Assembly (NCBI GenBank): GCA_951406725.2
Contig: OX597842.1
Location: 6,014,001 to 6,078,000 of the forward strand
Reading direction: 5' to 3'
DNA: 64,000 nucleotides
From: Octopus vulgaris
Lineage: Eukaryota
Position 1 is the first letter of the stretch; the number at the start of each line of letters is the position of its first letter. Position numbers and translations under genes: made by a program. The notes under the pieces are model-generated. The model ran no database searches. It saw nothing but the letters and a program-made list of their open reading frames with translations, and was not told the DNA's origin. Below, in pieces: positions 2,561-45,761 of the stretch.

Positions 2561-2746
2561 TAAGGTGTTTGATTAGTTATAATGGTTTTTAAAATTTTTC
2601 ACTTTGTTTTATGAATCGCAAATTTGTTTTGATGATACAATATTTGCATTATTTACATCTGACTGATATGCCTGTGGGCATATGGCGTAGTGGTTAAGAT
2701 CGCGGGCTATTAATCCCGAGATTCCGAGTTTCACTCCAAGTAGTGA

Positions 2747-2813
<67 letters not shown>

Positions 2814-2885
2814 TATAATAATAACAACAACAACATCCGGAAAATACTTTAGGAATGAGAACCCAGGTTCGAAATTCCCCCAGCA

Positions 2886-2928
2886 CACCTGATGAAGGCT
2901 GGAGAGTACATCAGTCGAAACGTTGTGT
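2886..2928 (+). ncRNA. Minimal hammerhead ribozyme
   Basis: acac CTGATGA aggctg..cagtc GAAA CG TT^ gtgt, with stem I acac/gtgt and a palindromic AACGTT stem III. Confidence 0.7.
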
Positions 2929-2937
2929 TACTAACAA

Positions 2938-3456
2938 TCATCATCATCATTGTTCGACCGTGGTCGAGACAATGGAATTTACTATGTTGCGCCAGACTTC
3001 ACGGTCCATCATAGCATTACGGAGGTCCTGTTGCTGGATGCCTGTATCCCTGGAGATTACATCAGGGTAGGAGAGTGTGCGCCCTCTGGTGTTGCGAGTA
3101 GATGGCTTCCAGAGGAGAAGAGTAGAAATTACTTCTTTTTCAGCTCTACAACAATGTCCAGCAAACTGGACTCTCCTACCCTTCACAAGAGATGACACAG
3201 GTGGTAATTTCCCATATATTTGCATTTTGGTTGGATGGTGCTTCCACGAGAGATTTTGAGCACTCATACGGAGGCGAGTGTAGGTTCCATCCAACCGCCT
3301 CTCAAGCTTCTTTGATAACGTCCAGGTTTCTGAGCCATAGTAGAATTGGTTCGACTGTGGCTTTGAATATTTCAAGTTTGAAGTCTCTACTTAGATTTGA
3401 TGACCAGATCTTATGCATGTCATTACAGGCTGACCAGGCCATACCCTTTCTAGTCT
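2938..3456 (-). mobile_element. 5'-truncated RTE-clade LINE
   Basis: Encodes YGSETWTL..RRVQFAGHC..MDREVWR and ends in a (TGA)n tail. A 10-bp TSD ttactaacaa lies at 2928-2937 and 3457-3466. Confidence 0.85.
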
Positions 3457-3789
3457 TTACTAACAAACAAGATGACAAATTTCAGTCAAATGTAAATAAT
3501 GTAAATAATGTACATAATTCCTCATCTCTCAAATATAGAACTGTACTGTTTTGATGATGTTAAAAAATGTTTTGGTGATGCGGACTGAGTTACAAGAAAT
3601 GGTATGTGTGTGTGCGTGCACATATATATGCGCGCGTGTGTGTAAATATATATGTATATAGGAATGTATGCGTGTATAAATGTATGTAAGTGTATGTACG
3701 TATGTATGAATGAATGCAGCTATCTGGTTATTGTCATTTGTTCAGGATCCGTCACTTTATTGGATTTTTATTTTATTTATTTACTTATT

Positions 3790-3943
3790 TGGAGTGGCTG
3801 TGTGGTAAGAAGCTTGCTTCCCAATCACATGGTTTCGGGTTCAGCCCCATAGTACCTTGGGAAAGTGTCTTCTACTGTAGCCTCGAACCGACCAAAGACT
3901 TGTGAGCAGACTTGGTAGACGGAAACTGAAAGAAGCCCGTCGA

Positions 3944-3984: not shown

Positions 3985-4050
<66 letters not shown>

Positions 4051-4289
4051 GAAAAATACAAACTGGGACAAGAACGTAAAACATTTAGAAGACGATACAA
4101 AAAACACGGACGGGACATTCGAAGCCTTCAATCTTCAGTCAAGAACCGGATCATCCTAGCAATTTCGGCTGATCAATCTTGAGATCGCTCCGATCCGGCC
4201 AGCCCCAAGGAAAATCTAAGCTACGAGCATTAGATTTCTTGGAAGAAGGATCGAATGTATACGAAACAGGGACAGAAAAACGGACGATG

Positions 4290-4362
<73 letters not shown>

Positions 4363-15636: not shown

Positions 15637-16854
15637 ACGGGAAGCTTTATGAAAATAAACAAAAGACGAAGGCAGGTGGAAAACAAACGAACAATTGTAT
15701 TAGTATGGCGCTCAGGAAATATAAATAAAACAAGTCTTTAACGTTTCGAGCCTACGCTCTTCAACAGAAAGATACACAGAGAGAGAAAAACACAGAAAGA
15801 AGGAGAGAAAAAAAATGCGTGCAGTAGCTAACGAATCAACATGGCGATCTGATTTCGGCCAGAGGTCAAAGATCAAACATGAGACGCGAGAGCGAAATAA
15901 GGGGAGATAATAGGGTTGATAAATGGGTTGAGGGACCAGCTAAAAGTGCGTGGGAGGGGTCTGGATGTGTGTATGTATAGGGTTGGTGTATGTATTAGTA
16001 TGTATAAGGGTGTGTGTGTGTGTGTGTGTGTATGAGAGAGTATTAGTGCGTAAGATTGGTCTGGACGTGCGTATGTATGGGGTTGGTGTATGTATTAGTA
16101 TGTATTAGTATGTATTAGTACGTATTGGTATGTATAGGTGTGTGTGTGTGTGTGAGAGAGAGTATAAGTGCGTATGCGGGGTCTGGACGTGTGTATGTAT
16201 AGGGTTGGTGTAAGTATTAGTATGTACTAGTATGTATTAGTACGTATTAGTATGTATTAGTTGGTGTGTGTATTAGTATGGCACATCATATGTGATGTGA
16301 TGTGTAAAGTCATGTGGTGTAGTGAGGAGAAGAGGGGGAGGGGGAGAAGAGGAGGGAGAGAATGGGAGGGGAAGAAGGGGGAGAAGGGGGAGAAGGGGGG
16401 AGGATGGGGGAGAATGAAGGGGATGAGGGGGATGAAGGAGGAAAGAGGGAGAGGGGGAGAGAGAAGGGGAGAGAGGGAGTGAGGGAGCAGAGGGAAGGGG
16501 AAGAGGGAGGGAGAAAGAGGGAAGAAGGGAAGGGGAGTAGGGGTGAAAGGATGAAGGACTGAAGAAGTAGGGGTCGGGGGAGAAAGGATAGGTGAGGAGG
16601 GGGAGAGGGGGTTAGATGAGGAGGGGGAGAGTTGAGACCAAATGGCGTATAAGAGCGAAGAGAGAAGATTAATTCCTGTTCACGGCGCAAACGGGAATCC
16701 GGATGGCCTCTGTGTAAGGACAAACCGAACACAGATAGGTGTTGCAAGGAGTGACCGGTGGAGCGGAAATGGCGTGAGACCGGTGTGTCGTTCGCAAGGT
16801 GGATGTCACGAAGGTGTTCCGCGAACCGGTCAGCCAAGCGGCGTCCCGTTTGTC

Positions 16855-16858
<4 letters not shown>
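15637..16858 (-). mobile_element. Penelope-like element: GIY-YIG C-terminal half, low-complexity 3' UTR and pLTR
   Basis: Encodes [35 protein letters not shown]....PFGLN. Hammerhead tcttt CTGTTGA agagc-gtag-gctc GAAACGTT^aaaga at about 15735-15772. Confidence 0.9.
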
Positions 16859-16918
<60 letters not shown>

Positions 16919-16959
16919 TATATATATATATGTAAATATATATATATATATATATATAC

Positions 16960-17017
<58 letters not shown>

Positions 17018-17147
17018 GACAAACGGGACGCCGCTTGGCTGACCGGTTCGCGGAACACCTTCGTGACATCCACCTTGCGAACGATACACCGGTCTCACGC
17101 CATTTCCGCTCCACCGGTCACTCCCGCAACACCTATCTGTGTTCGGT
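16725..17147. repeat. Inverted repeat (~130-bp arms) centred on (TA)n
   Basis: 16725-16858 is the reverse complement of 17013-17147 with few mismatches. Confidence 0.95.
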
Positions 17148-17298
17148 CCTTGTCGGAAGACAGAGCTATTGTTTTACCTTGAGAAAAGCGCTGTTGAAGT
17201 GTTAAGTGAAATTTGGCAATCGAGGATCGAATCCATGCTATGCCTGCATGAAGCCACTATAAATACGTTGTGGTATAAAAAATATCTACTGTCTGAAA

Positions 17299-24650: not shown

Positions 24651-25227
24651 AATGTGTGTGTGTGTATTCATAGATATGTAGAGGTATATATGATTGTACG
24701 AAATCGGGGTGTCTTGAATCAGCGTTATCTTTCGTTGGCCATCTGCAGATAAGGATCTCTGTTTGGTTCAATAGACGAACATCGAATGATCGGCATCAAG
24801 AATAGTAAACACATTTTACCACGATTCTGCGAGACATCTGCCAAACTTGATTTATTAAGGTTGTGACCAACTCAAAGATGAAACAAACAGACGCCTTATG
24901 AAGAATGGCAAATTACGAAAAGCAACCGAAAACTTTGGAAAAATAATGTAATAGCACAGGCATAGTTTTGCGGTTATAAAGCTCGCTTTGCAACCGAGTG
25001 GTTTGGGGTTCATTCCCACTGCGTGGCAATGCCTTGTGAGTGAATTTCACGGACGAAAACTGTGTCTGTGTATATACATGTATGTATAGATACGTATCTA
25101 TACATACATATATATACACAGGCACAGTTTTCGTCCATGAAATTCACTCACAAGGCATTAGTCAGCCGTGGTCTATAGTAGAAGACAGTTGTCCAGAGTG
25201 TCACGCAGTGTGAATGATACGTATATG

Positions 25228-25560
25228 TGCGCATGGCTCAGTGGTTAGAGCGTCGAGGTTACCATTGCGAGGTTGTGAGTTCGAATCCCTGACCAGGCTG
25301 CGTGTTGTGTTCTTGAGCAAGACACTTTATTTCGCGTTGTTCCAGTTCATTCAGTTGTAGAAATGAGCTGCGATGTTACAGGTGCCAAGCTGTATCGGCC
25401 CCTTTGCCTTTCCCTTGGATAACATTGGTGGCGTGGAGAAGGGAGGCCGGTATGCATGGGCGACTGCTGCTCTTCCATAAACAACTTTGCAGGGACTTGT
25501 GGCTGGGAGGGTAACTTTCTAGATACAATCCCATGGTCAGTCATGAGCGAAGCGGGTCTC
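25228..25560 (+). mobile_element. SINE family D (tRNA-derived CORE-SINE with a different tail)
   Basis: A box tggctcagtgg, B box gttcgaatccc, and a CORE domain shared with family C. Confidence 0.8.
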
Positions 25561-25972
25561 AGCTCGTATATATATATATATTCTTTTATTTGTTCCAGGC
25601 ATTTGACTACGGCCATGCTGGGGCACCGCCTTTAGTCGACCAAAAGGACCCCAGGATATATTCTTTGAAAGCCTAGTAATTATTCTCTCGGTGTCTTTTG
25701 CTGAACCGCTAAGTAACAGGGACGTAAACACACTAGCATCGGTTGTCAAGCGATATTGGGGTGTCAAACACAGACACAAACACATACACATACACTCATA
25801 TATGTATGTTTATACGACGGTCTTCTTTCAGTTCCTGCCTACCAAATCCACTCACAAGACACTTGACTAAGATGTCACGCAGTGGGACTGAATCCAGAAC
25901 CATTTGATTGGTAAGCAAGCTACTTACCACACAGCCACTCCTGGGCCTGTAGTCATGTGTGTATATAGATAC

Positions 25973-26050
<78 letters not shown>

Positions 26051-26475
26051 ATATATATGTATGTATATATATATGTATATATACATATATATATGTATAC
26101 ATATGCATATATATGTATATATATATGCATATATATGTATATATATATATGCATATATATGTATATATATATGCATATATATCTATATATATATACGTAT
26201 ATATATGTATACATATGCATATACACATGTATATATATGCATATATATGTATACATATACGTATATATATATGTGTGTGTATATATATATGCATATGTAT
26301 ATATATATTTATATACATATGTCTATATATCTGTATATATATATATATATGTATATATATGTATATATTTATATATATGTATATATATTCATATATATAT
26401 GTATATATATATACACATATATATGTGTATATATATATATATATACACACATAAATATGTGTATATATATGTGTA

Positions 26476-26530
<55 letters not shown>

Positions 26531-26533
<3 letters not shown>

Positions 26534-26758
26534 TAATCCCTCGACTATCGCTGGTGTTACGTTCCAACCTCCCCATCCCCACCGTGATAAGTGAAAATCC
26601 GCGAATTAGAAACCGTACTGTACTAAATATTTTAAAATCATTTTTATAATTATATATATTTATTTCATTATAAATGCAAAACAACACCACGGAGGAATCG
26701 ACGTAAACTTAAATAATAAACCGCGATAGGTGAACCGTGATACGGTTAGAGATTACTG
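26531..26758. mobile_element. Tigger/pogo-like MITE
   Basis: TIRs CAGTAATCCCT / AGAGATTACTG followed by TA. Confidence 0.75.
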
Positions 26759-26759
26759 T

Positions 26760-26794
<35 letters not shown>

Positions 26795-26820
26795 GCTAGC
26801 TAGCTAGCTAGCTAGCTAGC

Positions 26821-26855
<35 letters not shown>

Positions 26856-26856
26856 G

Positions 26857-26918
<62 letters not shown>

Positions 26919-27074
26919 TGAGTGGATGCTGAAAATTTTCTGGCTTTAAGTATGTTCCGAAAGGTCTGGGTTGGGGCCCAACCTTCCGAATTCTTTTACA
27001 GACCCTAGAAAACTGAAGAACCCCTGCAATAAATGTGTGAATCTGTGAGAAGAATATATATATATATATATATA

Positions 27075-27471
27075 TAATTAATCAATATAGGGTGGCAAAA
27101 AAAAATTTTGTAGAATTCTTTTGCCACCAGCGGCCTAGTAGGAAAAAATTAAAATAGTCACAGACCATTTTTAAAGTTCAACATCAACAATAAAGGAACG
27201 GCCATAATAGGCCATTCACCATAATAAAACCACAAAGTTCAACCGCAAATAAAAGTTAATTCAGTAAACCAGGAGAAAATTTAAAAAACATTTATGTTTT
27301 TTATACGATATACCGTTTCATCTGCAGATGAAACGGTATATCGTATAAGAAATTACAGGGTAAATGTTTTTTAAATTTTCTCCTGGTTTACTGAATTAAC
27401 TTTTATTTGCGGTTGAAGCTTTGGCTGTTATTTCTAGTGGGTGAATGGCCTATTATGGCCGTTCCTATTGT

Positions 27472-27475
<4 letters not shown>
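27075..27475. mobile_element. Palindromic (inverted pLTR-like) element
   Basis: Imperfect arms of about 145 bp surround a perfect 48-bp palindrome centred on CTGCAG (27322-27327). Both ends abut (TA)n. Confidence 0.75.
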
Positions 27476-27547
<72 letters not shown>

Positions 27548-29078
27548 ACATATACATATACACACATATATATATACATATATATTAATATATATATGTA
27601 TATGTATACATATATATATATGTATATATATATATATATGTATACATATACATATATATATACATATATATTAATATATATATGTATATGTATACATATA
27701 TATATGTATATATATGTATAGGCAAATTATAATAAAAGTGAAAATAAAAGCAACAAAAGTAAAAAAAAGGACGTGCACAGGGAATGCATTAGGTTGACAC
27801 TAATTTAGGATGGAAAAAGAGGGGCTGTGACGTTTCTGGCATGACTTTTTGTCAGAAAGAGGAAAATGAAAAGTTCTGGAGAGAAGGAAAACAAATTCTT
27901 TGAGAAAATCACATGTTGTGACATACCTGGTGTATGTGTGTGTGCGTATGTGTGTGTATTTGTGTGTTGTGTATGTGTGTGCGCGTGCGTGTCATCGCGC
28001 GTGTGCTTGTGACCCGCCCACTTCACAGCCGGTTTTGGTTTGTTTACGTCCGCCTAGTGGTTCAACAAACGTGATTAATAGAGTAAGTACCTGACTTTAG
28101 AAAAATAAGAACTAGGGTCAATCTGTTCGAAAACTCTTGAAGACGGTGCACCTGCGTGAGTGTAGTCCAATAACTGAAGCAAGTAAAAGATAAGGAAACG
28201 GATACAAGATGAGTCCTAAAAGACCCTACACCAAAATGGTGTTTCATACAAGTTTAATAACACTTCTCTGCTGTTGGTTAGTTCACTAATGCACGCTTAA
28301 AGAGGACCACGATGTAGGCCCGGAGCTAGACCGAGAGTTTTCAGGGTCCTAAGCTGGAAACGGTACCACTAGTTAAGATCTCTCCTAACTGCAGAAAGTA
28401 AGGCGTTAGTTAAGGTTTCTAATTATGAATGAATTCATAGATACATTCGTTCAAAAGTTGGGGACCTGAGATTTCGAGGCTGCTTTCCCCTTTTAAGAAT
28501 AGTAAATCGGAGATTCCCAGATTTGTCGTGTTGAAATCCATGAAATCCCCTCCATTCATTAATTTAAAAAGGGAGAATATTTCAGGCTGTCTGGCTTAAA
28601 CTTGCAGATTCATATTCCTGTGTAGTGAAGGACGCAACATCTAAGAGAACTTCTATACCCTGGGTTAGAATTCTGCTGTTTACCATCAAAGTACCATCAA
28701 CCGGTTGTTACTGAAGGTAGTATCATGATGTTTTGTACGATTTCTTCACACCTCTTTGTATTGGTTACGGAGCTGGTAAGAAAATTTACAAGACCCTAAT
28801 CGGAGGTATTGAAGATCTGAAGATCCCTGATGTTACTAACGCTGGTACTTTTTGAACGACATTAGCATCAAAATGGAAGCAATAGGAGAAGCAAAACATC
28901 TCTTATCGCGTTTAAATGAGCTATTGTAGGAATTTCGACGGTAGACCAAAGCATTTTGTCCATAATTTGAAGTTAGATTAAGAAATTCCGCTTTAAAATT
29001 GAATGTCAACTTACTTAATAATAAATGGTGCAAGCAATTAAGAGCATTGGCCATATTTACATTGTAAAAAAGGACAAT

Positions 29079-29490
29079 GCGCAGGAGTGGCCGTGTGGTA
29101 AGTAGCTTGCTAACCAACCACATGGTTCCGGGTTCAGTCCCACTGCGTGGCATCTTGGGCAAGTGTCTTCTATTATAGCCCCGGGCCGACCAATGCCTTG
29201 TGAGTGGATTTGGTAGACGGAAACTGAAAGAAGCCTGTCGTATATATGTATATATATATATGTGTATGTGTTTGTGTGTCTGTGTTTGTCCCCCTAGCAT
29301 TGCTTGACAACCGATGTTGGTGTGTTTGCGTCCCCGTCACTTAGCGGTTCGGCAAAAAAGAGACCGAAAGAATAAGTACTGGGCTTACAAAGAATAAGTC
29401 CCGGGATCGAGTTGCTCGATTAAAGGCGGTGCTCCAGCATGGCCGCGGTCAAATGACTGAAACAAGTAAAAGAGTAAAAGAGTAAAGAGT
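29079..29490 (+). mobile_element. SINE family B, full length
   Basis: tRNA head, CORE-like box and (gagtaaaa)n tail. Confidence 0.9.
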
Positions 29491-29838
29491 ATGCACTCTC
29501 TATCCTGTTAGTTTCTGTGTGAAGGATGAGAGAAGACAACGAGAAAGAACAATTCACGAGTATAAACTAAAGAAAACAAACCCGATTGTAGTGTTCATGA
29601 GTGGAGAGGCCTGAAAGATGATGAAAGCACACGTGCTCCAAAGACCTTCTGCAATATCCTGACTTTATAAGTTGATTTGACTTCATGAAATGAGGTCCTC
29701 TTTGTTGTGCTGACGGTGTGTTGGGTACAGGGATAGGAGATACTAAAATACAAAGCTATTAAAGAATGATGTGAGTCACGACGATGGCTGTGAAGAGTTC
29801 CACAAGAGAGAATAGATGTCGTGAAGTTCTATCTAGTC

Positions 29839-30073
29839 CAGTGGTTATCAACCGGGGTCGGCATAACTCTTCAGGATTCATATAAGATTTTATTGTTAAA
29901 GTTTATGAGCAATAAATTGGTTATACATCGACAATACACAAAATATGTTAACAATTTTTTGATAGAAATATTATTATTTCTAAGTTTCTCTAATGGAGAC
30001 TACGGCAGCGGTACTACCCTGAAACTAGACTGCAGATGCCTGACAAGCAAGGGGAAGCGGCTGACCTCCCCTG
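29839..30073. mobile_element. hAT (Buster-like) MITE
   Basis: Termini CAGTGGTTATCAACC / GGCTGACCTCCCCTG. No clean TSD. Confidence 0.55.
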
Positions 30074-30344
30074 TTCGAAGGATATAATGGACACAAGTTC
30101 GTGTGTCACATAGCTAGCTAGAGGCGATGGCCTCTTGGAGCAAATCAACGGCAGCTTTCGTCCTATATTTATGGACTGCCATATTAGTTTGGTATTTAAT
30201 GTACCAAACATTTAAGCTTCTACCTAAAAACTCACAAGGTTTTGGTTGGACCGAGACTGCAGTAGAAGACACTTACCGATGGTGGTACGCACTGAACCCA
30301 GAACCACGTGGTTGACAAGTATACTTCATAACACACAACCACAC

Positions 30345-30655
30345 TTGCCCACGATTATGATATAGAAGCAATCACCTTCTGGCTAGAAAAATACCCAGAA
30401 GAAATCCCAGGACGCATCAATCACAGATTCATAATTGCAGCACTGAAATTCATCCTACTGAACAACTATTTCATGTTCGATATAGTTTACTATCGACATA
30501 TGTGGAATTGCAATGGGAACTCGAGCTGCCCCAGTGATTGCGAACCTTGTAATGGGTTACCTAGAACTTCAAATATACCAATCATCACTACAAAAATATG
30601 GCACCTTATTTCATTGCTATTTAAAGGAGAACTGGAAGAGGTATTCAAATGAAAT
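30345..30655 (+). mobile_element. Penelope-like reverse transcriptase fragment
   Basis: Encodes LKFILLNNYFMFD..YY / [21 protein letters not shown] / WKRY. Confidence 0.9.
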
Positions 30656-30658
30656 ATG

Positions 30659-30730
<72 letters not shown>

Positions 30731-30829
30731 CATATATACATATACATATATATACACATATGTATATATATACATACATATACATATATATAGCTGAATA
30801 ATACATATATTTGTCTGTGTGCGTGTGTG

Positions 30830-31161
<332 letters not shown>

Positions 31162-31380
31162 CACACACACACATACATACATGCATACATACATACGCAC
31201 GTATGCATTCATATATACACGCATACACATTCATACATACACACATATACATTTATACATACACACATACATTCATACATACATGCATAAACAGATATTT
31301 AAATGTATACATACACACATATACATCCATCCATACATACGTAAACACATATTTAGATGTAAGCATATGCATATACATAC

Positions 31381-31411
<31 letters not shown>

Positions 31412-31739
31412 GATATATTGCGTGCAGTCACCCGGCTAACAGCGCATGTAATTAGCAGTGTAAGCGGATACATATTTCGGATGTTTGTGCCTTTCTAGGG
31501 TGTGTCAGCTGGTACACCGTGTACTCAGCTGAACGAATGCTTAATGAGTTGTTTTGTTGTACGTGCTATGGGTAAGAGTTTGCATCTGTATCCACACCTG
31601 CTACATTATAAATAGGTACCATGAAGAGGTATTGTTTCCACTGCGTCCACTTTACAGTATATATGTGTGTGCGTGTTTGTGTATATGCATATAAATACGC
31701 ACAAATATACTCATAAACATACTTCCGTAGATATGTATT

Positions 31740-32050
31740 TATCACGTGATCACACGACCGACCAGGCTATTAGATGTTGCTGCACATCGCTGGTTACCAT
31801 GCGCTTCGCATTGTTTTTGCCTTCAAATGACGCTACCCCGCTGGTTAAGCGAACAGGCCAAAAGAAGAAAGAGTGGGAGAAAGTTGTGGCGAAAGAGTAC
31901 AGCAGGGATCGCCACCCCCTCCTGCCAGAGCATCGTGGAACTTTGTTTTCGCTCAATAAACACTCACAACGCCCGGTCTGGGAATCGAAACCGTGATCCT
32001 ACGACACCGCGAATCCGCTGCTCTGACCACTGGGCGATTGCGCCTCCATA
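31740..32050 (-). mobile_element. SINE family F (tRNA-derived)
   Basis: Head ggaggcgcaat.gcccagtggt.ag..cagcgga..gtttcgattccc. A second partial copy lies at 47495-47662. Confidence 0.8.
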
Positions 32051-32743
32051 TATATATATATATATATATACATATATATATAAAAGAACCTTTCTTCTTG
32101 ATGTATTTATGTATGTATGCATGTACGGACGGACGGAAAGACGGACAGACGGACGTAAGTAACGGATAAAAATTGTGTAACCAACACAACATTGGTGGAT
32201 GAATAACTTTCTTTAACGAGGTAGTTTGCATTAATATGATACCAACAGTTTCATGCTCAAACTTAGAAACTAGAATAACGCAAACATAGTAACCACACTT
32301 GATAGACTATATGCGATTGAGCGTCAAGCGAGGTTTTGTATGAGACTATATAGTACATGCATAAAGGATAAATTCAGTAAGGGACGCTGTCGTTTAAAAA
32401 TTATAATAATAGTTATAGCCATTGTGTTGCATGCTTTGCAAATCATTGGCTACTTCGATATGCAAAGGCTACTGCACACATGCAAGACATGAAAGCACGA
32501 CCATTATCTCATTGTCTCTCTCTCCCTCTCATATATTTATATGTATTCTTTTATTCTTTTCCTTGTTTCATTCATTTGACTGTGGCCATGTTGGAGCACC
32601 TCCTTTAGTCGAACAAATCGATCTCTGCACTTATTCTTGGTAAGCCTCGTATTTATTCTATCGTTCTCTTTTGCCGAACAAGCGATGGTGCGGGAACGAA
32701 CACAGACACACAAATACATACATACATACATACATATATATAT

Positions 32744-32827
<84 letters not shown>

Positions 32828-32985
32828 GCCACGGGATTCTTTCAGTTTCCGCCTGCCAAATCCACTCACCAGGCTTTGGTCGGCTCAAGGATATAGTAGA
32901 AGAAGACACTTGCCCAAGTGGCACGCTGTGGTGAGACTGAAGCTGGAACCATGTTGTTGGGAAGCAAACTTTTTACCATACAGCG

Positions 32986-33039
<54 letters not shown>

Positions 33040-33049
33040 GATATGATAT

Positions 33050-34800
33050 AATATAATATAACGTAAATCCCGTTCTGTGCGCGCGTTTGTGTGTGTGTGT
33101 GTAAAAGATTAACGACCGCATTTTTCAACTGATTTTCTCCAAACTGGGAACATACATTACTTATGTTCTAGGGGTGGTTTTAGACTCTCAAAATTTTTCA
33201 CATAATGTGGAACAGGCCCCCTGGGAGCAGAAAATACCCGTTCCTGGGTTATGTGGATAAGGGATGTAACTCTTTGCGAAGTAACTTTCAGAAATTGATT
33301 GTCTCCCTTACATCCATTGACCACAAAAACTTTTTGAATATTGCTTTTTATATTATATTCACGTCTTTGAAAGTTTAAAAAATATTTACTTCCGGTTTTC
33401 TAGTGTCAGTGACGTCTATATATCTCTATCCATCTCTATCTCTCTATATCACTCTATATCTTTTTATCCATTTCTATCTCTATATTTATCTATCTTTCTA
33501 TATCTTAGCTATCTATCTATGTATATTTATTTGTTTAACTAGCTAGGTTTCTTTCACTGCCCCTCTCGAAAGATTTCATTCTCTATTGTTTTCATTTTCA
33601 TCTCCCAGACCCTCTTGTCTTCACTTAAAGTTCAATCGTTATTGTTTTCACTGTAAGGTTTCAATCGCTATTTACAAACAACAATGACAAATTACTGACA
33701 GAAAGAATTTCACAATTACTGACGAAAGTAATTTCATACATAATTTACTGATAGAAGTAACTTCATAAATTTCACTTCAATCCATACGCTTCGTTAAATT
33801 TACCGACAGATTTCTTATTTATTTTTGCAACGTTTTTCGCTTTTTTTGTTGTTGATGGAATTACTGATAAAAGTAAGTTCATAATTTACTGACTGAAGTA
33901 ACTTAAAAAATTTCACTTAAATCCGTACATTTAGTTAATTTCCCTAAAAATTTCTTATTCACTTTGCAACGGTTTCGTGTTTTTCTGTTGTTAACGGCTT
34001 TTTTCTGGGTCCTTCGATACTAGCTCTTTGGTTTACTGACAAATTTCGCTCCAACCCGTACAATTCTTTATTTTCTGTAAAAATTTCTTATTTATTTTCT
34101 GCCTGTCGTATTAAGAAATATAATTTCCGTTACCCAGTTATTTTCATTGTTTACTATCTTCTGTACCCGAGTATTTCTATGTACGTATATAACCATACCT
34201 AGAAGGAAGGTGTCAAATTTGTCTACAATGTCAAGGTCAGCCAAAAGAATGTCTCTGCCCAGGGAAAGAGAAACAGCTGCAAAAAGGGAAGCATACCAAG
34301 AAACGACCAGACTGTGCACTACAAAAGCCAGAGTATCTCAAAGTGATGAATAGAGGTATGCACGGCTGACAAGGAACAGGATCTCCACTACAGAATGAAG
34401 AGCAGTTGCAACAGCTCAGAGAAGCAACTTCTATGAAGCAGCTTTCAATTATGATCCAGCAGTTCATTATGCATATTACACTAGAGTTTCCAGTGGTGCA
34501 ATGACAACTGATTGCATACATTGTAAAGCAAGGAAGTGGCCTGGAGAGACACCTGCACTGTTTTTTGGCAACACAAAACGTGTTTTTGAATTACGTGTAT
34601 TTACTTTATATACATATATGAGTTGAAAACTTTCTCTTAACATTTCACTTAACGTCTATGTTCCATTCTGGCATGGGTTGGAGAGTTATTAATGTGGAAA
34701 GTTGATATCTCAGCTACTAGCAGTTGAGACCTGCGTAATCTAGACGGCGTTTTTAATTTTCATTATTTTTTAACCCGAACAATGCTGGGTATTTCTCCTA
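33050..34800 (+). mobile_element. Internally deleted Helitron
   Basis: Carries AFNYDP and DCIHCKARKWPGETPAL N-terminal motifs (34441-34560) and the degenerate 3' hairpin acccgaacaatgctgggt..cta. Confidence 0.75.
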
Positions 34801-34805
34801 ATATG

Positions 34806-34838
<33 letters not shown>

Positions 34839-35451
34839 GTGTGTGTATACATATGTATATATATATATATATCCATATATATGTGTATATATATATATAT
34901 GTATGTTTGTATGTATGTATGTATGTATATGTGTGTGTGAATATATATATTATATATCTTTACATCTATAAATACATTTTATATACGTATATATTTTAAA
35001 CATACGTTTTGCACACATTCGCGCGCACGCACACCCACTCACACCTTACATACGTATATATATCGGGTGGTATAGCAAAGGTGCTCAGTGTCCCGGGGCT
35101 AAAGACACATGTGGCGGCATTCATCACTACTGAAAAGTTTTCATTATAATAATTATTCGTCTTGCCACTCATTACGACTAATTAACCATTTAATGACAAT
35201 AACATGAAGAATTAATTACTGCTTTACAGAGGTGACGAATTGGCAAAGAATCGTGAGAGTTTCGAATAAAATGTCCTGCAGTGCTTTTTCCTGCCCTTTT
35301 CTGCTCTCAGTTCAAATCCCGTTGTGACCAAATTTACCTTTCGTTCATTTAGGCATCGGCGATCTTTCAGAGAAAGTATATCATAATTGAAAGTATTTAT
35401 TCGGCAATTTTCTAAAACTATATATACTTACATGCATAAAAATACATATAT

Positions 35452-37439: not shown

Positions 37440-40400
37440 TCATTGGATTCACAGGTTCGATGCCGTCGCGGTAAGGCATTCGTTTTGAACTCCCGAAGAA
37501 GTTTGATTTTTGTTGTCACAAGTTGTTGAACTCTTGTTTTTATTGTTCAATTCGTGTTGTAAGGTAGCTGCCCTCCTAGGGAGCTAGATTTTCTTTTAAA
37601 AAAGCCCCCTTTTGGGGGCTAAATACACCAATTACATCGAAGATTTTCTTCGCAAATTTTACCAAAATTAATGGTGATCGAGCGAGGGAGTAAGGACGGG
37701 AGGTTGAAGAGCCAACTCAACGAAGACTTCCCCGCCTTCACCACCACTATTGTTCCTACACGGGAAAAAGAAGAGGAGGAGAAAGAAGAAAAGGAACAAG
37801 AAAGGGAAAATGATGGCAAAACGCTTGGAAAATATCGAATTAAATAATGAAATGTGGGGAGAAGGCGAAGATTCTCTTGAAGAAGGAGCTTCCCAAAGTG
37901 GGCGATTTCAACTTACAGGTGGACGATGGGCCAATTTCTAGAAAATGGTGGGCGATTTGATGGTGTCAAACATCAGCTCATTAATAGTCTCCTGCGTTCT
38001 GAATTTTCTATACAAGTGGATGAGTAAACTGTTGTCGACAGTCAATGTTTGATGATGGTATATGTTCGGTATAACAGCAAAGTCCTTCAACCTTGTGAGG
38101 AAATGCTGTTCACAGAGAAATTGCCGCTTGATTCAAAAGGTGCAGCAATTTTTCACTCTTAAGTCTTTCCTTTTTGAACATAATATCCCACTCAGTAATA
38201 TTCTTGCCTGTGCGTCTGATGGAGCCCCTTCGATGATAAGAAGACACAAAGGTTTTTCATCTCCCCTAAAACGTGGAAATTCCCACCAGATACTAACTGT
38301 TCATTGCTTGGCATACCGGCAGCATCTAGTGGCAAAAAATATGAACGGTAGATTGAATGATGCGCTATAGTTATTTATCAAGACTGTGGACAAATTGAAG
38401 TCCAGTCCCTTGTCTGATCGAATTTTCCGTCAACTCTGAGAAATGATGAGGACCATACTAAACTTTTATACCATGCCGAAGTGCGGTGGTAAAACTGTGC
38501 TTTACACTTTGTTGAACTGTTTTATATATCTTTTTCTTTGAAAATACTCCACTATCCGCTTCATTGATGGCTGCAAGGTGCGGTATCTTTTTTCTTTGTG
38601 ATATACTCATAAAATTAAATGATTTGAATAAGTTATTGCTAGGAAACAGAAAAATTCTCGTTGATTGTACATCATTTATCACTACCTTCATTTCGAAATT
38701 GGAGTTGTTTAAGACTGACATTTCAAAACGTCAATTCCATCAATTTCCACAACTTGATTCTTTGAAAGATGAAATGATTGATGCGGATTTAACTACATAT
38801 CGCAACTATTTACAATCATTGCACGATGGCATAGTGGAGCGATTTCAAGATGCTATTGCGTTACATATTCCAAATTGGTATAGCAATCTGTTTGAGGTCG
38901 GATAGTTGATTGCGAGGATGATGTTCAGGAGAAATTGATGGAATTATAAAATGACAATGACTCCAGAATGCGATATTGCCGTAATGGCAAAGAAGGTTTG
39001 TGGTACCATCAGAATATATTGAATTCCTACCCCAATCTGTGGAAACATCTGAAATTACTTTTGCTTGCCTTCCCTACCTCGTACCTGGTTGAATCTGGTT
39101 TTAACCATGTTGGAACATTATTTTCCCATAAAAGAATTGGACTGGATGTGATACAACGAAGAGACTTGAGGCTAAAGTTGACAAGTTTGAAACCGAATGT
39201 CTCTGCACTAGCTGCATCGCACCAGACACATGGTTCTCATTAAAATGTTTTATTATTTTCCTTTATAATACAATCATTAATTATTTTTGCATCGGTAGTT
39301 CTGATCAATGATTCATTTGGGGAAAATGAAAATCAGTGTAAAAGAAAGCGCGTTTCCAGAAGATAATCTCTCTGCATAATATAGAGTTAACGCGCGAATC
39401 TTATTTACACTACTGGCAAAACTAAACCCACAATAAGGGATTAGTAAACAACCGCATATTTAGTCCAAATGGTACTAACAGGGCAACGAGTCTACGATAT
39501 AGTGTGTGTGTCAAATGATACAGGAAGGGGTCCTAGGGATTTTGTGTTGGGGAGTGGGGTTGTGTCAGGGTTGTTTTTACACAGGTGGGCGATGGAACAT
39601 TTTTTGGCTGATAGGTGGGCGATATTGCAATTTGACACAAAAATTTGGGAAACACTGCTCCAAACACTACAATTGAAATCGAACAAGGAACCCTGAAGAG
39701 GACAATAGCATACAAAGTAATAAGTCTAAGAACAAAAAATGTGCAGAGAGCGACCGAAGCACTGACAGAAAAATATCTTCATCCCATTTGGGATAATAAG
39801 ATTTACGTTTACAGTGGGAAGCGTTTTGGGACCGTTGAAGTGAAGTTCCAAAACGGAGAAGCAAGGAAACATTATCACCTCTCTTCGCAGTGAGGAACTG
39901 AGAGAAGATTAGTAAGGATTAAGGTGGCCAAAATCCAGCCAGAAATCGATATAGAATATGTAGCAGCAGCCGTCCTGTATGAACTTGGGAATAGGACAAA
40001 TATCCTCCAGGGATACAGGTTGAGGAAGCAAAATTGGATAGGAGCGGGGATGATGCTCTTCTGCCAAATTGAAGAGGAGCAGATAGAAATTATTCCCGAC
40101 TTTATCATCATGAGAGGAGGGAGAAGGCTGCTTGTTGCAGTCGAAAGTAGAAAGCCGAAATGCCACCTTTATGGCCACACGAAGCCATTTAATGGCTTTC
40201 TGCCTAACCAAGAAAGCACCCACCAAAATGCCCCTGCTGCAAGCGCCTCTACCACAGGAAAAGCTCAAGCAACAACCACAGCAGAGCAAACAAACAAGAG
40301 GATGCAACAGTGTGGGACACAGGCCATCCAACATGAGCGGCAGGAAAAGGAGTCACAGGAAAAGCAGAGAGAGAGAGAGAGAGAGAGAAACCCCCAGAGA

Positions 40401-43061
40401 ATGAAAAGAAGAGCACAGATTTGCAAATGAACCCCTACTGATACAGAAGAGGACGAGAACGGAGCGTTGGACGGGAGATCCCTGGAGTGGACAATGGTAA
40501 AAGGGAAGAGAAAACAGAGAACGAAAGAAAAAAGCAGCAGCAACACAAGAAAAAATAAATAAAATATAAAAAAGTGACCCTCCCACACAAATACAACATA
40601 AACACGAACACACAAGAACAGAAGCGCCACACTGAAACAAACAGAAACAAAAACAGTAACCAAGGCAACTACACAGTAATAGACGCAAGCAATACAGAAT
40701 CCATGCAGGCAATAAACAATATATTAAACATTGATGAAAACAGCTGTGTCACAGCCACATTCCACAAACCAAAAATTATTACCGTAGAACAAAACACATA
40801 CACACTTTTAAAAGCAAGACACCTGAATGCCATTGGAGAATTTCGGACCTCTATTAAAAGAATAATCTATAAGGTATTACCAACGGTGGGAGCAGCAACC
40901 TGTGACACCTATAGGTAAGTGTTTTTTCTCTCGTTTATCCAACTCGTAGTTGCACTCAGAATAGGCAGATTGAATGCGCGGGAACTGTGCGATCACTGGA
41001 AACAAAATTACCTCCTCAGTGACCTCACGTCTCTACCATTGGATGTGGTGGTCATCAGTGAGGCGAGAGTCGCCGAGGAACGGGTTCTCGCTTCCTTCCT
41101 CAATGGCTATGAGATATTCTTATGTCCAAGTCGGTTGTGATGGGGAGGCCGTCTGGTCATGTTGTTTCGGAGGGGTTTGAACCTCGCAGTACGAGCCATC
41201 TTCATAGACCGAGAGAGTAGGTGTGTGGTGCTGGACGTGGCAAGCAGGGAAGGCTATGCTTTCAGACTAATAGCGGTCTATACCCCGAGCGGGCAGGGTC
41301 GGTCAGAGTTCTTCAGGCGTCTACAGACCTTTCTAGGGACCTCCCACTCCTTAGTGCTAGTGGGGGACTGGAACGGTATCTTAGATGAACGCATAGACTA
41401 AGTGGGATTTAGTAGTGGGAAGCGGGGTGCAAAAAGCCTCTCAAACCTGCTCAGTAGTTTCCAATTAGCTGACAGGTACCGACTAGACCATCTCAATGCG
41501 CCAATGTGGATTTGTTCAAATCGCAACGGGTCGTCCAGATTGTTCTTAGGATTTTCTGCAGATTAGGGAATAGGGATAGCATAGGGTGTCCACATTTTCA
41601 AATAGTCGGCTACACAGACCACAAGTTCGTAGTATGTACGCTCGACCTAGATAGGTTACATAGACAGGGACTTGGCATCTGGAGAAGCAGGTCCATGCCG
41701 TCCAACAGCTACTTGGGGTCTGGTTCGGTCCAGGTGGACAAGAACTGGGACGAGGTGACGATCAGGGTAGCCAAACTCACCCAGAAATGGGCTGAGAGGA
41801 AACTGTCCCTGAAAGATCGGGCGGAGGTGGCGAATACGTACATCGAATCCGTCATCTATTACCGTCTGACCATCGTGCCTTACCCTAAGACACGCCTGAA
41901 GAAGTTGGAGAGTATACTCTTTCGCTTTCTATGGAAGGGGCGCGTTCCTCTTGTCAGGCGGTCCATCTGCTGTCAACAGCCGCTGAGCGGAGGGCTGTGC
42001 ATGCCGCGATTGCTGATACGCAGGCATGCGCTGAGGCTGCAGCATCTCCTTAACGGTGAGCAGGTGTGGTCACCCTTCGTCAGACACGCTTTTCTTCAAC
42101 TCATCTCCTTAACGGAAGTGCAACCTTGGGTCAAGCGGAAACCGAGGGAGGGCGAGTGACATCTTGAGTGCCGAAAAGCCCTCTTAGTCTTCTACCAGTC
42201 GGGCAATGCGGTCGGTAGAAATTCTACCTTAGTGTTTTCTAGGGGGTTAGCGGAGGATAGGTGTGACGACGTACTTGGGGAGACTCTGGGCTTCAATGAG
42301 GATCTTTTTCAGATGACTTTCGGGCCGGGGCCTATGGATAACTTCCAGAAATCCCTAGTCTGGCAATGCTACCGGGGAGCGTTTCCGATTCGGCATAAAC
42401 TCCACAGGCATGGAAGTGCCGTCAGTCGGAGCTGCCCGAGATGCGCACGGAGCGATGAAACCATTCTGCATGCACTCGTCCAGTGTCCGACAATTTCTGA
42501 CGCGTGGGTTTATGTCGAGCACTTGCTGTCACGTGTCGCACGGATCTGGCTAACAACCAAGTCTATTGCTAAGATTGCTCCGCCCTCTTCGGTCGGGAAG
42601 TTTTCATCTGCGTGGTGGCCATGGCGAAAGAAGTTGTGTGGTGGACAAGACTGAAAGGCACTTTACTCTCTGGCGAATCAACTTTTTCATGTTTCACTTG
42701 AAGAGACGGATCAGAGTGGAGAGGGAGGTGCATCCTTCTAGCAAATTTATTGAAAGGTGGATGAGAATGGCGAGCATGGTTCGTGTGAACAGGCCTGCTC
42801 TGAGCATGCGCTTCTGAGTGGCGTAAAAGAGAGAAGAAGCACTTCCCTAAGCGGTGAGGGAAAAATTTCTGTGGTGTTTGCACGGTTTCCCCTTGGAAGT
42901 CCCCCCGCCACTATTGGGGAATTGTATTTGTTTAATTTTATTGTTAATTTTTGTTATTGTTTTATGTTTACTCGGTAAACCCCTCCGTTTGTGTCCGTTT
43001 CTGCCACTGTGTTTGCGCCCCTGTATGTTCTATGTAGGCCCATGTGGCCAGTAAAGAAAAC
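37440..43061 (+). mobile_element. Tx1/L1-clade LINE, both ends present, RT core deleted, degenerate
   Basis: ORF1 remnants, an APE endonuclease (VVVISEAR, FRLIAVYTP, LVLVGDWNGIL, YTDHKFV), the post-RT region KWAERKLSL and the CCHC finger CPRC..ETILHALVQC. An 18-bp TSD attattaaaaaggcggcg lies at 37422-37439 and 43062-43079. Confidence 0.92.
37884..39657 (+). mobile_element. hAT (Buster/Charlie-type) transposon relic nested in LINE ORF1
   Basis: Encodes FSIQVDE, ASDGAPSM, HCLAYRQHL, YHAEVRW, LLAFPTSYLVESGF and DLRLKLT...HQTHGSH. Termini are gcttcccaaa / tttgggaaacactg, with subterminal ggtgggcgat repeats. Confidence 0.92.
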
Positions 43062-43070
43062 ATTATTAAA

Positions 43071-44160
43071 AAGGCGGCGATCTGGCAGAATCGTTACCAC
43101 GCCGAACGAAATGCTTAGCGGCATTTCGTCCGTCTCACGTTCTGACCTCAAATTCCGCCGAGGTCGACTTTGTCTTTTAGCTTTTCGGGATCGATGAATA
43201 AAGTACTAGTGGAGTACTGGGGTCTATGTAATCTACTGTCCCCTCCCCACAAAATGCAGACCTTGTGCCTATAGTAGAAAGGATTATATTCTGCCATCTG
43301 ACACAAAAGGTAATAATGGTTTCTTCTTTTCTTGGATTTGCTCTTCAGTAGAAAAAGAAAGAACAAAACACTAAACAAAAGAAATCAAGAAGAATATTAA
43401 AATGTATTATAAACAAACAAATGAGAGAAAATGAAACGATTGATAAAAGCCCAATAGAAATTTTACGGCAAAATAAACAACTCGTTTGGCAATAATCACA
43501 ACCACGACAACCGCAATAATAACAATAACATTGCGCGTGCACATACCGCGTCGGGCATAAACAGGAATAGCAACGAGTTCGCCTGTCTTTACGTTCTGAG
43601 TTCAAATTCCGCCGAGGTCAGCATTGCCTTTCATTCTTCCGGGCTCGAATAAATAAGTAGCAGTTGAGTACTGGGCTCGATGTAATCGACTTAACCCCGC
43701 CCCCAAGATTGCTGGCCTTGTGTCTAGATTAGAAATGGTTATAATTAAAGACACCGAGTTGGCAGAGTCATTAGTACATCGGATAAAAATGCTTAGTGGC
43801 TTTTCTTCCGGCTTTCTCAGTTCAATTCCGCCAAGGTTAAAATTGCCTTTCATCCATTCTCGGTCGATAAAATAAAAACCAGTCGATGTAATTGATTACC
43901 TCTTCCTACAAAATGTCGGGCCTTGTATCTATATAAGAAATGATTAGGCGTATTAAGAGGGCGAATTGGTAGAATCATTAGCGCGTCGGAAGCAATGCCT
44001 TGCAGAATTATTCCGGACCTTTACGTTCTCTGATCAAATCCCATCGAGGTCAACTTTACTTTTCATCCTTCGTATGTCTGTGTGTGTGTGTGTGTGGGTG
44101 AGGGGGGTGTCAATAAAATACTAGTTAAGTACTGGGATCCATGAAATTGTGTAGCCCCAA
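43071..44160 (+). mobile_element. Cluster of four same-orientation SINE family A copies
   Basis: Copies at about 43071, 43580, 43750 and 43955, with varying divergence. Confidence 0.75.
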
Positions 44161-44231: not shown

Positions 44232-44823
44232 CATTATTTACATTATTTACATTTGACGGATATTTGTCCTCATCTTGTTTGTTGTTAACACAACGTTCCG
44301 GTTGATACACTCTCCAGCCTTCATCAGGTGTCTTGGGGAAATTTCGAACCTGGGTTCTCGTTGTTGTTGTTGTTGTTATTATTATTATTGAGTGAGAGAG
44401 CAGTGCATGCCATCAAAGTGACACTGGGGTAAAATATACGAAGCCCAGTATACCCATCATACCCGTCTGATAAGGGTACACTAGGCACATGCATCACAAC
44501 TATATGTGCGCAACATGGCGATCTCATATCAAGATAAACAGCACAAGACCTTGCAGGTGGGGTCCCAAAGAATCCCTCTCAACACACAGCTATGATGCTC
44601 CCCCACTACTTCTGCTCGTGATCAGATATGAACACATTGTCAGCCACCAATGAACATGGTCAACTGGTTAAGGTCAAACAACTGACAAGAAAATCTGTGG
44701 TATTGAGCAGAATATTTGCTGTAGCCCATCTTTTATACCAAGACAAAATAATGTACATGATAACACTTCCAATCAGTTAAGATCAGAAGCCACGAGAGCT
44801 ACTGCCTGGTACTGCATCAGGGC

Positions 44824-44885
<62 letters not shown>

Positions 44886-45393
44886 TCACTGCCTGAAATT
44901 TTCTATTGGTAGTTTTACTCGAAGGAAATATTTGCGAAGTGTTGTATTATTCTTTGAGTAAAACCACCTCTAGAAGAGAATATGACCACAGCTTTGGTAG
45001 GTTACACAAAGGCGAAATATGCTGCCCCCTCAAAATAAGACTAGAGGAACATCGCAAAGCTGTGACACGAGGAGATATTGATAAATCGGGTATAGCTGAT
45101 CATCTATGGAAAAATGGTGACCACCTCCCCTTGTGGGATGAAGTTAAAATTATCGACAGAGAACACCACTGGAAGATATGAAAACTAAAAGAAGCAGCAC
45201 ATATGCTAGGACATAATAACCTTTTAAGCAGACCGAGTGCAGATATTAGTAGCATGTGGGAACCGGTATTAAGGAAGGATAAGAAAATATTAGATTTATA
45301 AGCCCAAAACTTCACTCCATAATCGCCCATGGCGTAGTGGTTAAGAGCGCGGGAAACTAACTCCAAGATTCTGTGTTCGATTCCAGGCAGTGA

Positions 45394-45458
<65 letters not shown>

Positions 45459-45640
45459 GTAATAACATCGTAAAATACCTTAGGAATGAGAACCCAGGTT
45501 CGAAATTTCCCCAAGACACCTGATAAAGGACGGAGAATATATCAGCCGAAACGCTGTGTTAACAACAAACAAGATGAGGACAAATATCCGTCAAATGTAA
45601 ATAATATACATAATTCCTCATCTTTCAAATATAGAACTAT
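44232..45640 (+). mobile_element. 5'-truncated Penelope-like element with inverted 5' pLTR and tRNA-like, hammerhead-bearing 3' pLTR
   Basis: GIY-YIG region PLKIRLEEHRKAV..KSGIADHLW..WDEVKIIDRE..LKEAAH. tRNA-like head at 45324-45397, hammerhead remnant at 45515-45560, and an inverted copy at 44232-44897. Confidence 0.9.
44390..44827. mobile_element. Unclassified ~440-bp insertion in an (ATT)n tract
   Basis: Interrupts the (TTA)n of the inverted pLTR and is absent from the cognate 3' copy. Confidence 0.6.
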
Positions 45641-45761
45641 ATAATCATGGATTATTTTGTACCATTTTCGCACCAATGATGTGATTGTTAATTTCTAGAA
45701 TGACATTTTATGACATGTGGCCGATTTAAAATTGCTGCCCTGATGTCAAAATTAGAAACCA

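Follow-up and report, generated by a model that had tools for sequence, protein, structure and literature searches.

Among the closest described systems, Poseidon_Ac (PAc) of Anolis carolinensis is a Penelope-like element (PLE) with a single ORF of about 835 amino acids that combines reverse transcriptase (RT) and GIY-YIG activities and has a hammerhead at its start; RT starts in vitro at two internal sites that delimit a 30–40-nt tail, and both strands of its AT-rich targets are cut and extended (PMC11167929). The octopus element analysed here shares these features. It differs in that its pseudo-LTR (pLTR) starts with A and B boxes at which copies pile up, no tRNA-type head being described in the accessible text on Poseidon_Ac (PMC11167929). 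The Pen2 and Pen3 elements of Adineta vaga share with it a pLTR that includes the first ORF codons, an inverted pLTR, a one-sided tail (31 bp in Pen2/Pen3), short target-site duplications (TSDs; 8–10 bp), a palindrome at the 5′ end of the pLTR, and solo pLTRs (PMC3846280), and the layout with ORF start, inverted pLTR, one-sided tail, and 8–10-bp TSDs is also known from PMC8557442. Pen2 and Pen3 differ in that TATA/Inr-like motifs are proposed for them, tRNA goes unmentioned in the paper, and their solo pLTRs are few and are ascribed to recombination or deletion (PMC3846280).

Animal non-LTR retrozymes are likewise non-coding, pLTR-related units that carry a type I hammerhead and rely on PLE enzymes, but they form tandem arrays, whereas the octopus copy comprises one unit plus an inverted stub (10.64898/2026.07.22.740005; PMC4209133); a term search of the accessible part of the preprint 10.64898/2026.07.22.740005 found no mention of tRNA or Pol III. 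Sequences derived from small RNAs are carried by other retroelements: RTE-1_DAn has a tRNA-like sequence but is a LINE (PMC5786205), and Helenus, Ajax, and Cassandra have terminal sequences derived from tRNA or 5S RNA but are non-autonomous LTR elements (PMC10886601); none of these is a PLE. A recently published annotation of octopus repeats reports many SINE and Penelope families that are unclassified, and its accessible text does not connect the two (PMC13282606). The literature searched, which includes term searches of the accessible parts of PMC12988792, PMC8967140, and PMC3747384, contained no tRNA-headed PLE and no PLE-dependent SINE; Repbase, Dfam, SINEBase, subscription papers, and supplementary or archived repeat libraries lie outside that search and may contain the family.

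The window is the whole 64,000-nt stretch of Octopus vulgaris DNA that was analysed (assembly GCA_951406725.2, contig OX597842.1, positions 6,014,001–6,078,000 of the forward strand). The unit at 2670–3543 on its forward strand is interpreted as a 345-nt solo pLTR of a Poseidon-type PLE that is split by a 520-bp fragment of an RTE-type LINE. The comparisons given below confirm the observations of the earlier note in part and also support its interpretation in part. BLAST against the window aligns 2682–2940 and 3462–3545 with consecutive parts of another copy (45329–45641), leaving a 520-bp gap between them, and the unit without the LINE diverges by about 9% from the consensus. The consensus is a script-built majority sequence of the 3′ part of the element; its hairpin starts at 1619, the A and B boxes are at 1633 and 1678, the hammerhead core is at 1766, and the tail extends to 1885.

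The unit begins at 2670, which corresponds to G1620 of the consensus, 13 nt before the A box (2683–2693), and this agrees with the earlier note, which had placed its start at a tRNA-like head. The 12-nt hairpin junction lies at 2670–2680 and has its loop in the fold-back orientation, and template-jump junctions at other loci begin at the same G. This start is followed by the tRNA-derived head (2676–2750), in which the A box is intact and the B box (2726–2737) has decayed, and by an (AAT)n/(AAC)n spacer (2751–2840). The first part of the 53 initial codons of an 835-amino-acid RT and GIY-YIG ORF (2855–2937; the homologue P0006 aligns from residue 11) overlaps the hammerhead (2885–2928), and sequence comparison assigns 3467–3543, beyond the LINE, to the remaining pLTR and a tail extension of about 30 nt that ends at the long 3′ site.

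Upstream of the head, a 34-nt copy of the 3′ part of the pLTR lies in inverted orientation (2636–2669, minus strand), ends at the short, tail-less 3′ site, has 88% identity to the copy's own tail, and is joined to the head through an ATAT microhomology. Arm–head junctions of the same type occur at loci L230, L337, and L083. The earlier note had recognized this inverted tail as 2647–2669 with the same TAAATAATG class of ending as at 44232; the class is the same, and the arm in fact reaches 2636. The earlier note had expected no LINE-type TSD, but two identical 12-bp copies of a TSD are present (2625–2636 and 3547–3558, plus strand); the test motif was matched by 8 of 29 paralogues of the host element, and these eight have the site in a single copy. 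The insertion lies in the RT–EN linker of a different PLE family, the 3′ part of which occupies 1692–2636 on the minus strand (GIY-YIG ORF 2065–2559) and resumes at 3559.

The interrupting segment (2938–3457, minus strand) derives from a single-ORF APE-RT LINE, of which it encodes a frameshifted C-terminal part; it is a 5′-truncated 3′ end with a (TGA)n tail, flanked by a 10-bp TSD (2928–2937 and 3457–3466). Protein comparison matched it with 184 of 316 candidates at E ≤ 1e-10, with P0121 as the best match (85% identity) and full-length relatives of about 1045 amino acids; a Pfam scan of the fragment gave no match. From its architecture we infer an RTE affiliation, and it would have entered 3′ of the hammerhead after insertion of the pLTR. 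The description of this copy as devoid of coding sequence does not hold, given this reverse-strand LINE ORF fragment and the 53 PLE codons in the rest of the unit. The sister copy (44232–45641, plus strand) consists of an inverted arm (44232–44890, itself interrupted), the GIY-YIG end of the ORF, a stop codon, the head, (AAT)n, the hammerhead, and the tail. A separate repeat of about 430 bp (44392–44830) lies within the (AAT)n of its inverted arm, and similar sequence flanks loci L009, L153, and L164.

The hammerhead core can be read directly as CTGATGA at 2889, GAAAC at 2917, and a GTT triplet, with a stem II that includes one G–U pair and a stem I of 4 bp, and was rightly described as intact. 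It is a minimal type I hammerhead within the pLTR, with a palindromic helix III, a layout described for PLE hammerheads in the accessible part of PMC4209133, and its cleavage is predicted. Rfam gave no hammerhead match at the gathering score, ARAGORN and Rfam at normal thresholds reported neither the head nor the hammerhead, and single-strand folding gave no significant z-scores. The alternative label of retrozyme in the earlier note is at odds with the structure, as retrozymes are defined by tandem hammerhead units and the focal copy is one unit with a 34-nt inverted stub. Further hammerhead-like pLTR remnants of other families, adjoining (TA)n tracts, are located at 740–860 and 4040–4290 of the window.

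The unit corresponds to the pLTR of an autonomous element. In 26 of 30 copies selected by an endonuclease-coding stretch, the head (at least 40 nt) directly follows the stop codon, and in copies selected by post-tail sequence the tail continues into the ORF. The assembled consensus monomer is 2646 nt long, and its ORF begins between (AAT)n and the hammerhead; the focal copy therefore includes the first 53 codons. This ORF aligns over about 800 residues with an 836-amino-acid Anolis protein (37% identity) and with P0006 (56%), the N-terminus of which has the same hammerhead-encoded peptide; it has an RVT_1 domain match, and its GIY-YIG endonuclease is read from motifs. A single ORF with RT and C-terminal GIY-YIG, a pLTR that repeats the ORF start in tandem or inverted, a 30–40-bp tail at one end, and two 3′ ends identify it as an EN+ PLE of the Penelope/Poseidon type. 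The unit is thus most probably a solo pLTR of an autonomous Poseidon-type PLE with a tRNA-derived 5′ end, likely produced when the element's own RT primed internally on RNA started at the head.

Long coding copies are few. Only 5 of 52 loci with the ORF N-terminus extend more than 1000 nt into the ORF, and most stop 75–270 nt past the tail and then rejoin the pLTR start; with a tail-junction anchor, those ORF-side ends were scattered. The scarcity of long ORF copies hints at short templates, and short or looped templates may be common. At five loci (L283, L288, L289, L290, L292), a head-less tandem unit of about 290 nt (consensus 1719–1885 plus 121 nt of ORF) forms a small retrozyme-like derivative of the focal PLE. 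Locus L276 (1128–1776, oriented) contains a head-to-tail dimer of head, tail, and 84 nt of ORF, both units of which start from consensus 1624, and L426/L427 carry a similar unit with 234 nt of ORF.

The positions at which copies begin were scored at loci with exact 20-mer matches, which were taken in the order listed along the first 61 Mb of a single contig (C1). Every distinct arm with an exact head 20-mer and at least 150 nt of upstream sequence was included, which gave 100 arms from 180 loci; an initial head search, biased toward the junction of the query itself, was left out of the counts. Nineteen 5′ ends were within the head, 62 were at consensus 1619–1630 (including fold-back arms with spurious alignment to 1596–1615), and 19 arms continued into the ORF end (four assigned by eye). 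Among the 81 arms that reach the head start, 62 (77%) end in this 12-nt window, compared with 9.6% (about 8) expected from the truncation rate within the head (P = 2e-46); some non-independence, from a few insertions represented by both halves and from duplication, does not remove the peak. The sharp peak at the head that the earlier note had proposed to look for in a plot of 5′ ends is thus present in these 61 Mb, and a defined 5′ end of the template at the head is supported.

At other places in the element, the full PLE does undergo ordinary random 5′ truncation, as seen in the 19 ends within the head and the scattered ORF ends, but the excess in the 12-nt window rules it out as the source of the peak, and it is extremely improbable also from genome-wide counts, which fall sixfold over 60 nt. 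Exact 20-mers in the 2.8-Gb genome number 7841 for the hammerhead, 5148 for the head, 850 for a site 60 nt upstream of the head, and 62 for the ORF N-terminus. Correction of exact counts for 6–7% divergence would give roughly 25,000–35,000 hammerhead-bearing arms genome-wide.

The peak could also arise with no RNA start at the head, if the 12-nt palindrome were a hotspot for fold-back or pausing on a long read-through RNA. Palindromes are found at the pLTR 5′ ends of rotifer PLEs (PMC3846280), the octopus hairpin has a folding energy of −4.6 kcal/mol as RNA, and 19 of the 62 ends are classed by a pattern rule as folding back through it. However, the other 43 ends are without fold-back, and fold-back priming itself requires a cDNA end at 1619–1622, because the next native base is unpaired. 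A 4-bp hairpin would be unlikely to halt three quarters of the cDNAs. In addition, template jumps, which involve no target trimming, begin at G1620 in two independent junction types (L441; L426/L427), with one or two added A residues and no extra G. A hotspot without an RNA start is therefore very unlikely. The junctions without extra G, although tiny in number, are compatible with an uncapped RNA, and the tRNA-like head is likely the transcription start of the element.

Insertion by PLE machinery, as the earlier note had suggested, is borne out by the inverted arm, the one-sided tail, two fixed 3′ ends, and TSDs of 10–13 bp. The 3′ ends are bimodal, with 22 of 51 at 1852–1864 and 28 of 51 at 1879–1885, and 37 of 51 copies have an inverted arm. 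Direct repeats of at least 8 bp, mostly 10–13 bp, flank 16 of 46 insertions, compared with 1.5% of shuffled pairs.

In the proposed mechanism, the A and B boxes would direct transcription, most likely by Pol III, from the G located 13 nt before the A box. The element's protein would then nick both target strands about 10–13 nt apart, and cDNA synthesis would begin internally, either about 240 or about 270 nt into the RNA, much as anole Poseidon cuts both strands and starts RT at two tail-delimiting sites. Priming in the first pLTR would give a short, ORF-less cDNA extended to the very 5′ end of the RNA, and priming in a downstream pLTR would give ordinary 5′-truncated ORF copies such as that at 44232–45641. 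The two cDNAs would finally join head to head, in many cases via the 12-nt hairpin with which the RNA begins. For the focal copy, a left cDNA that began at the short site may have extended for about 34 nt before it jumped to the head via the ATAT microhomology and met the right cDNA, which would have started at the tail end. An RNA start at the head would explain why most head-reaching copies begin there and why they look like SINEs.

The central proposal of the earlier note, a SINE that depends on a PLE, shares this 5′ peak; since the unit is the element's own pLTR and ORF start, the peak cannot separate a SINE from the PLE's own start site. A true PLE-dependent SINE would consist of solo pLTRs that are transcribed by Pol III into the flank and re-mobilized in trans as a lineage of their own. 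Several observations favour it: head-bearing copies outnumber ORF-linked copies about 6 to 1, the consensus A and B boxes are perfect, one solo copy is without TTTT before its flank, a small head-less tandem derivative exists at five loci, and non-autonomous PLE derivatives are known (PMC8557442). As in SINE2 elements, there is a tRNA-related head with A and B boxes and a defined 5′ end at that head. SINE2 elements also have a head that is absent from the autonomous partner and a 3′ tail that comes from a LINE partner and ends in poly(A) or a simple repeat; here, the head is present in the ORF-bearing copies, and the 3′ end is the PLE ORF start plus tail.

The solo copies show no sign of a separate lineage. 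Forty-nine ORF-linked and 62 solo pLTRs have the same majority base at all 241 sites (0 of 241 differ), with the smallest P values of this site comparison falling mostly in the anchor as a selection artefact, and the one strong non-CpG polymorphism (G/A) is at 37% in both groups. The ages also agree, as divergence is 6.1% (n = 18) in one group and 5.0% (n = 51) in the other (P = 0.18). Among 37 and 50 well-covered copies, shared derived alleles show no clustering by solo or ORF-linked label (P = 0.33), in a 171-site test that, on star-like copies diverged by 5%, could overlook small solo or SINE subfamilies. Moreover, solo copies are without RNA beyond the RT start sites, which anole Poseidon requires in the form of the first 172 nt of its ORF (PMC11167929). 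A PLE-dependent SINE is accordingly unlikely as an independent lineage, and, as the sharp peak marks the start site of the autonomous element, it is also unnecessary.

Which polymerase starts at the head can be approached through the promoter motifs and terminators. The consensus A and B boxes are perfect and at tRNA spacing, and a start 13 nt before the A box is usual for SINEs. A strict A+B pattern is present in 8 of 30 copies; the corresponding counts for two control PLE families are 0 and 1 of 30. The B box of the focal copy has three substitutions, which makes present-day activity of this copy as a Pol III gene unlikely. The head scored best against tRNA-Arg within the tested genomic set of Arg, Ala, Thr, Cys, Ser, Lys, and Glu genes; an origin from tRNA-Thr was considered and scored lower. 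Octopus tRNA-derived SINEs, OK, OR1, and OR2, were reportedly described by Ohshima and Okada in 1994, and OR2 is said to be about 270 bp long and tRNA-Arg-like. OR2 may be the focal unit, both being about 270 bp and closest to tRNA-Arg.

The 2646-nt monomer contains no TTTT, whereas the ORF sequences of two head-less PLE families have three (in 1131 nt) and four (in 2085 nt). This deficit is weak (P = 0.009 by base shuffle, 0.029 by codon shuffle, and 0.08–0.20 under Markov nulls); GGGG is likewise absent from the monomer, and the second control family is also below its TTTT null (4 versus 6.4). Raw RNA-seq from three runs on a long copy had equal depth on both strands, a profile that tracks copy number, and no start peak. 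A TCTTT-type terminator 80 nt past the tail, which had been suggested by 8 of 52 ends, was rejected after the tail-junction anchor placed only 2 of 50 arms there and the others were scattered. The internal promoter in the pLTR of Drosophila Penelope is LINE-like and TATA-less (PMC2377424), so the octopus head could instead be passive cargo at a Pol II start.

Pol III transcription from the head is plausible on these sequence features. A more far-reaching version, which we put forward tentatively and with some doubt, is that an autonomous coding PLE is transcribed end to end by Pol III from a captured tRNA promoter, that TTTT terminators have been eliminated from its 2.65-kb monomer, and that internal RT initiation yields tens of thousands of SINE-like solo copies, some of them probably catalogued as a SINE family.

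Other elements in the window include the end of a very young PLE family without a tRNA head (16310–17173, minus strand), in which the 40 genomic copies that were scored show 100% identity over 231 bp and L384 has a 695-amino-acid open stretch; this family is probably still active. Other tRNA-like repeat families are present at 3790–3940 and 43080–44130, with several related copies clustered in the latter interval. A decayed LINE with ORF1-like and RT C-terminal frames, read as L1/Tx1-like, occupies 39894–42820.

These results indicate that an autonomous element can produce SINE look-alikes without a separate SINE lineage, which matters for repeat classification. If OR2 is the focal unit, a named SINE is really a PLE pLTR. 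The sharp run-off peak provides genomic support for the internal-initiation model of PLE transposition. Should the coding RNA truly be a Pol III product, translation would have to proceed from an uncapped message of 2.6 kb, and one could test whether the hammerhead within the first codons acts as a processing step.
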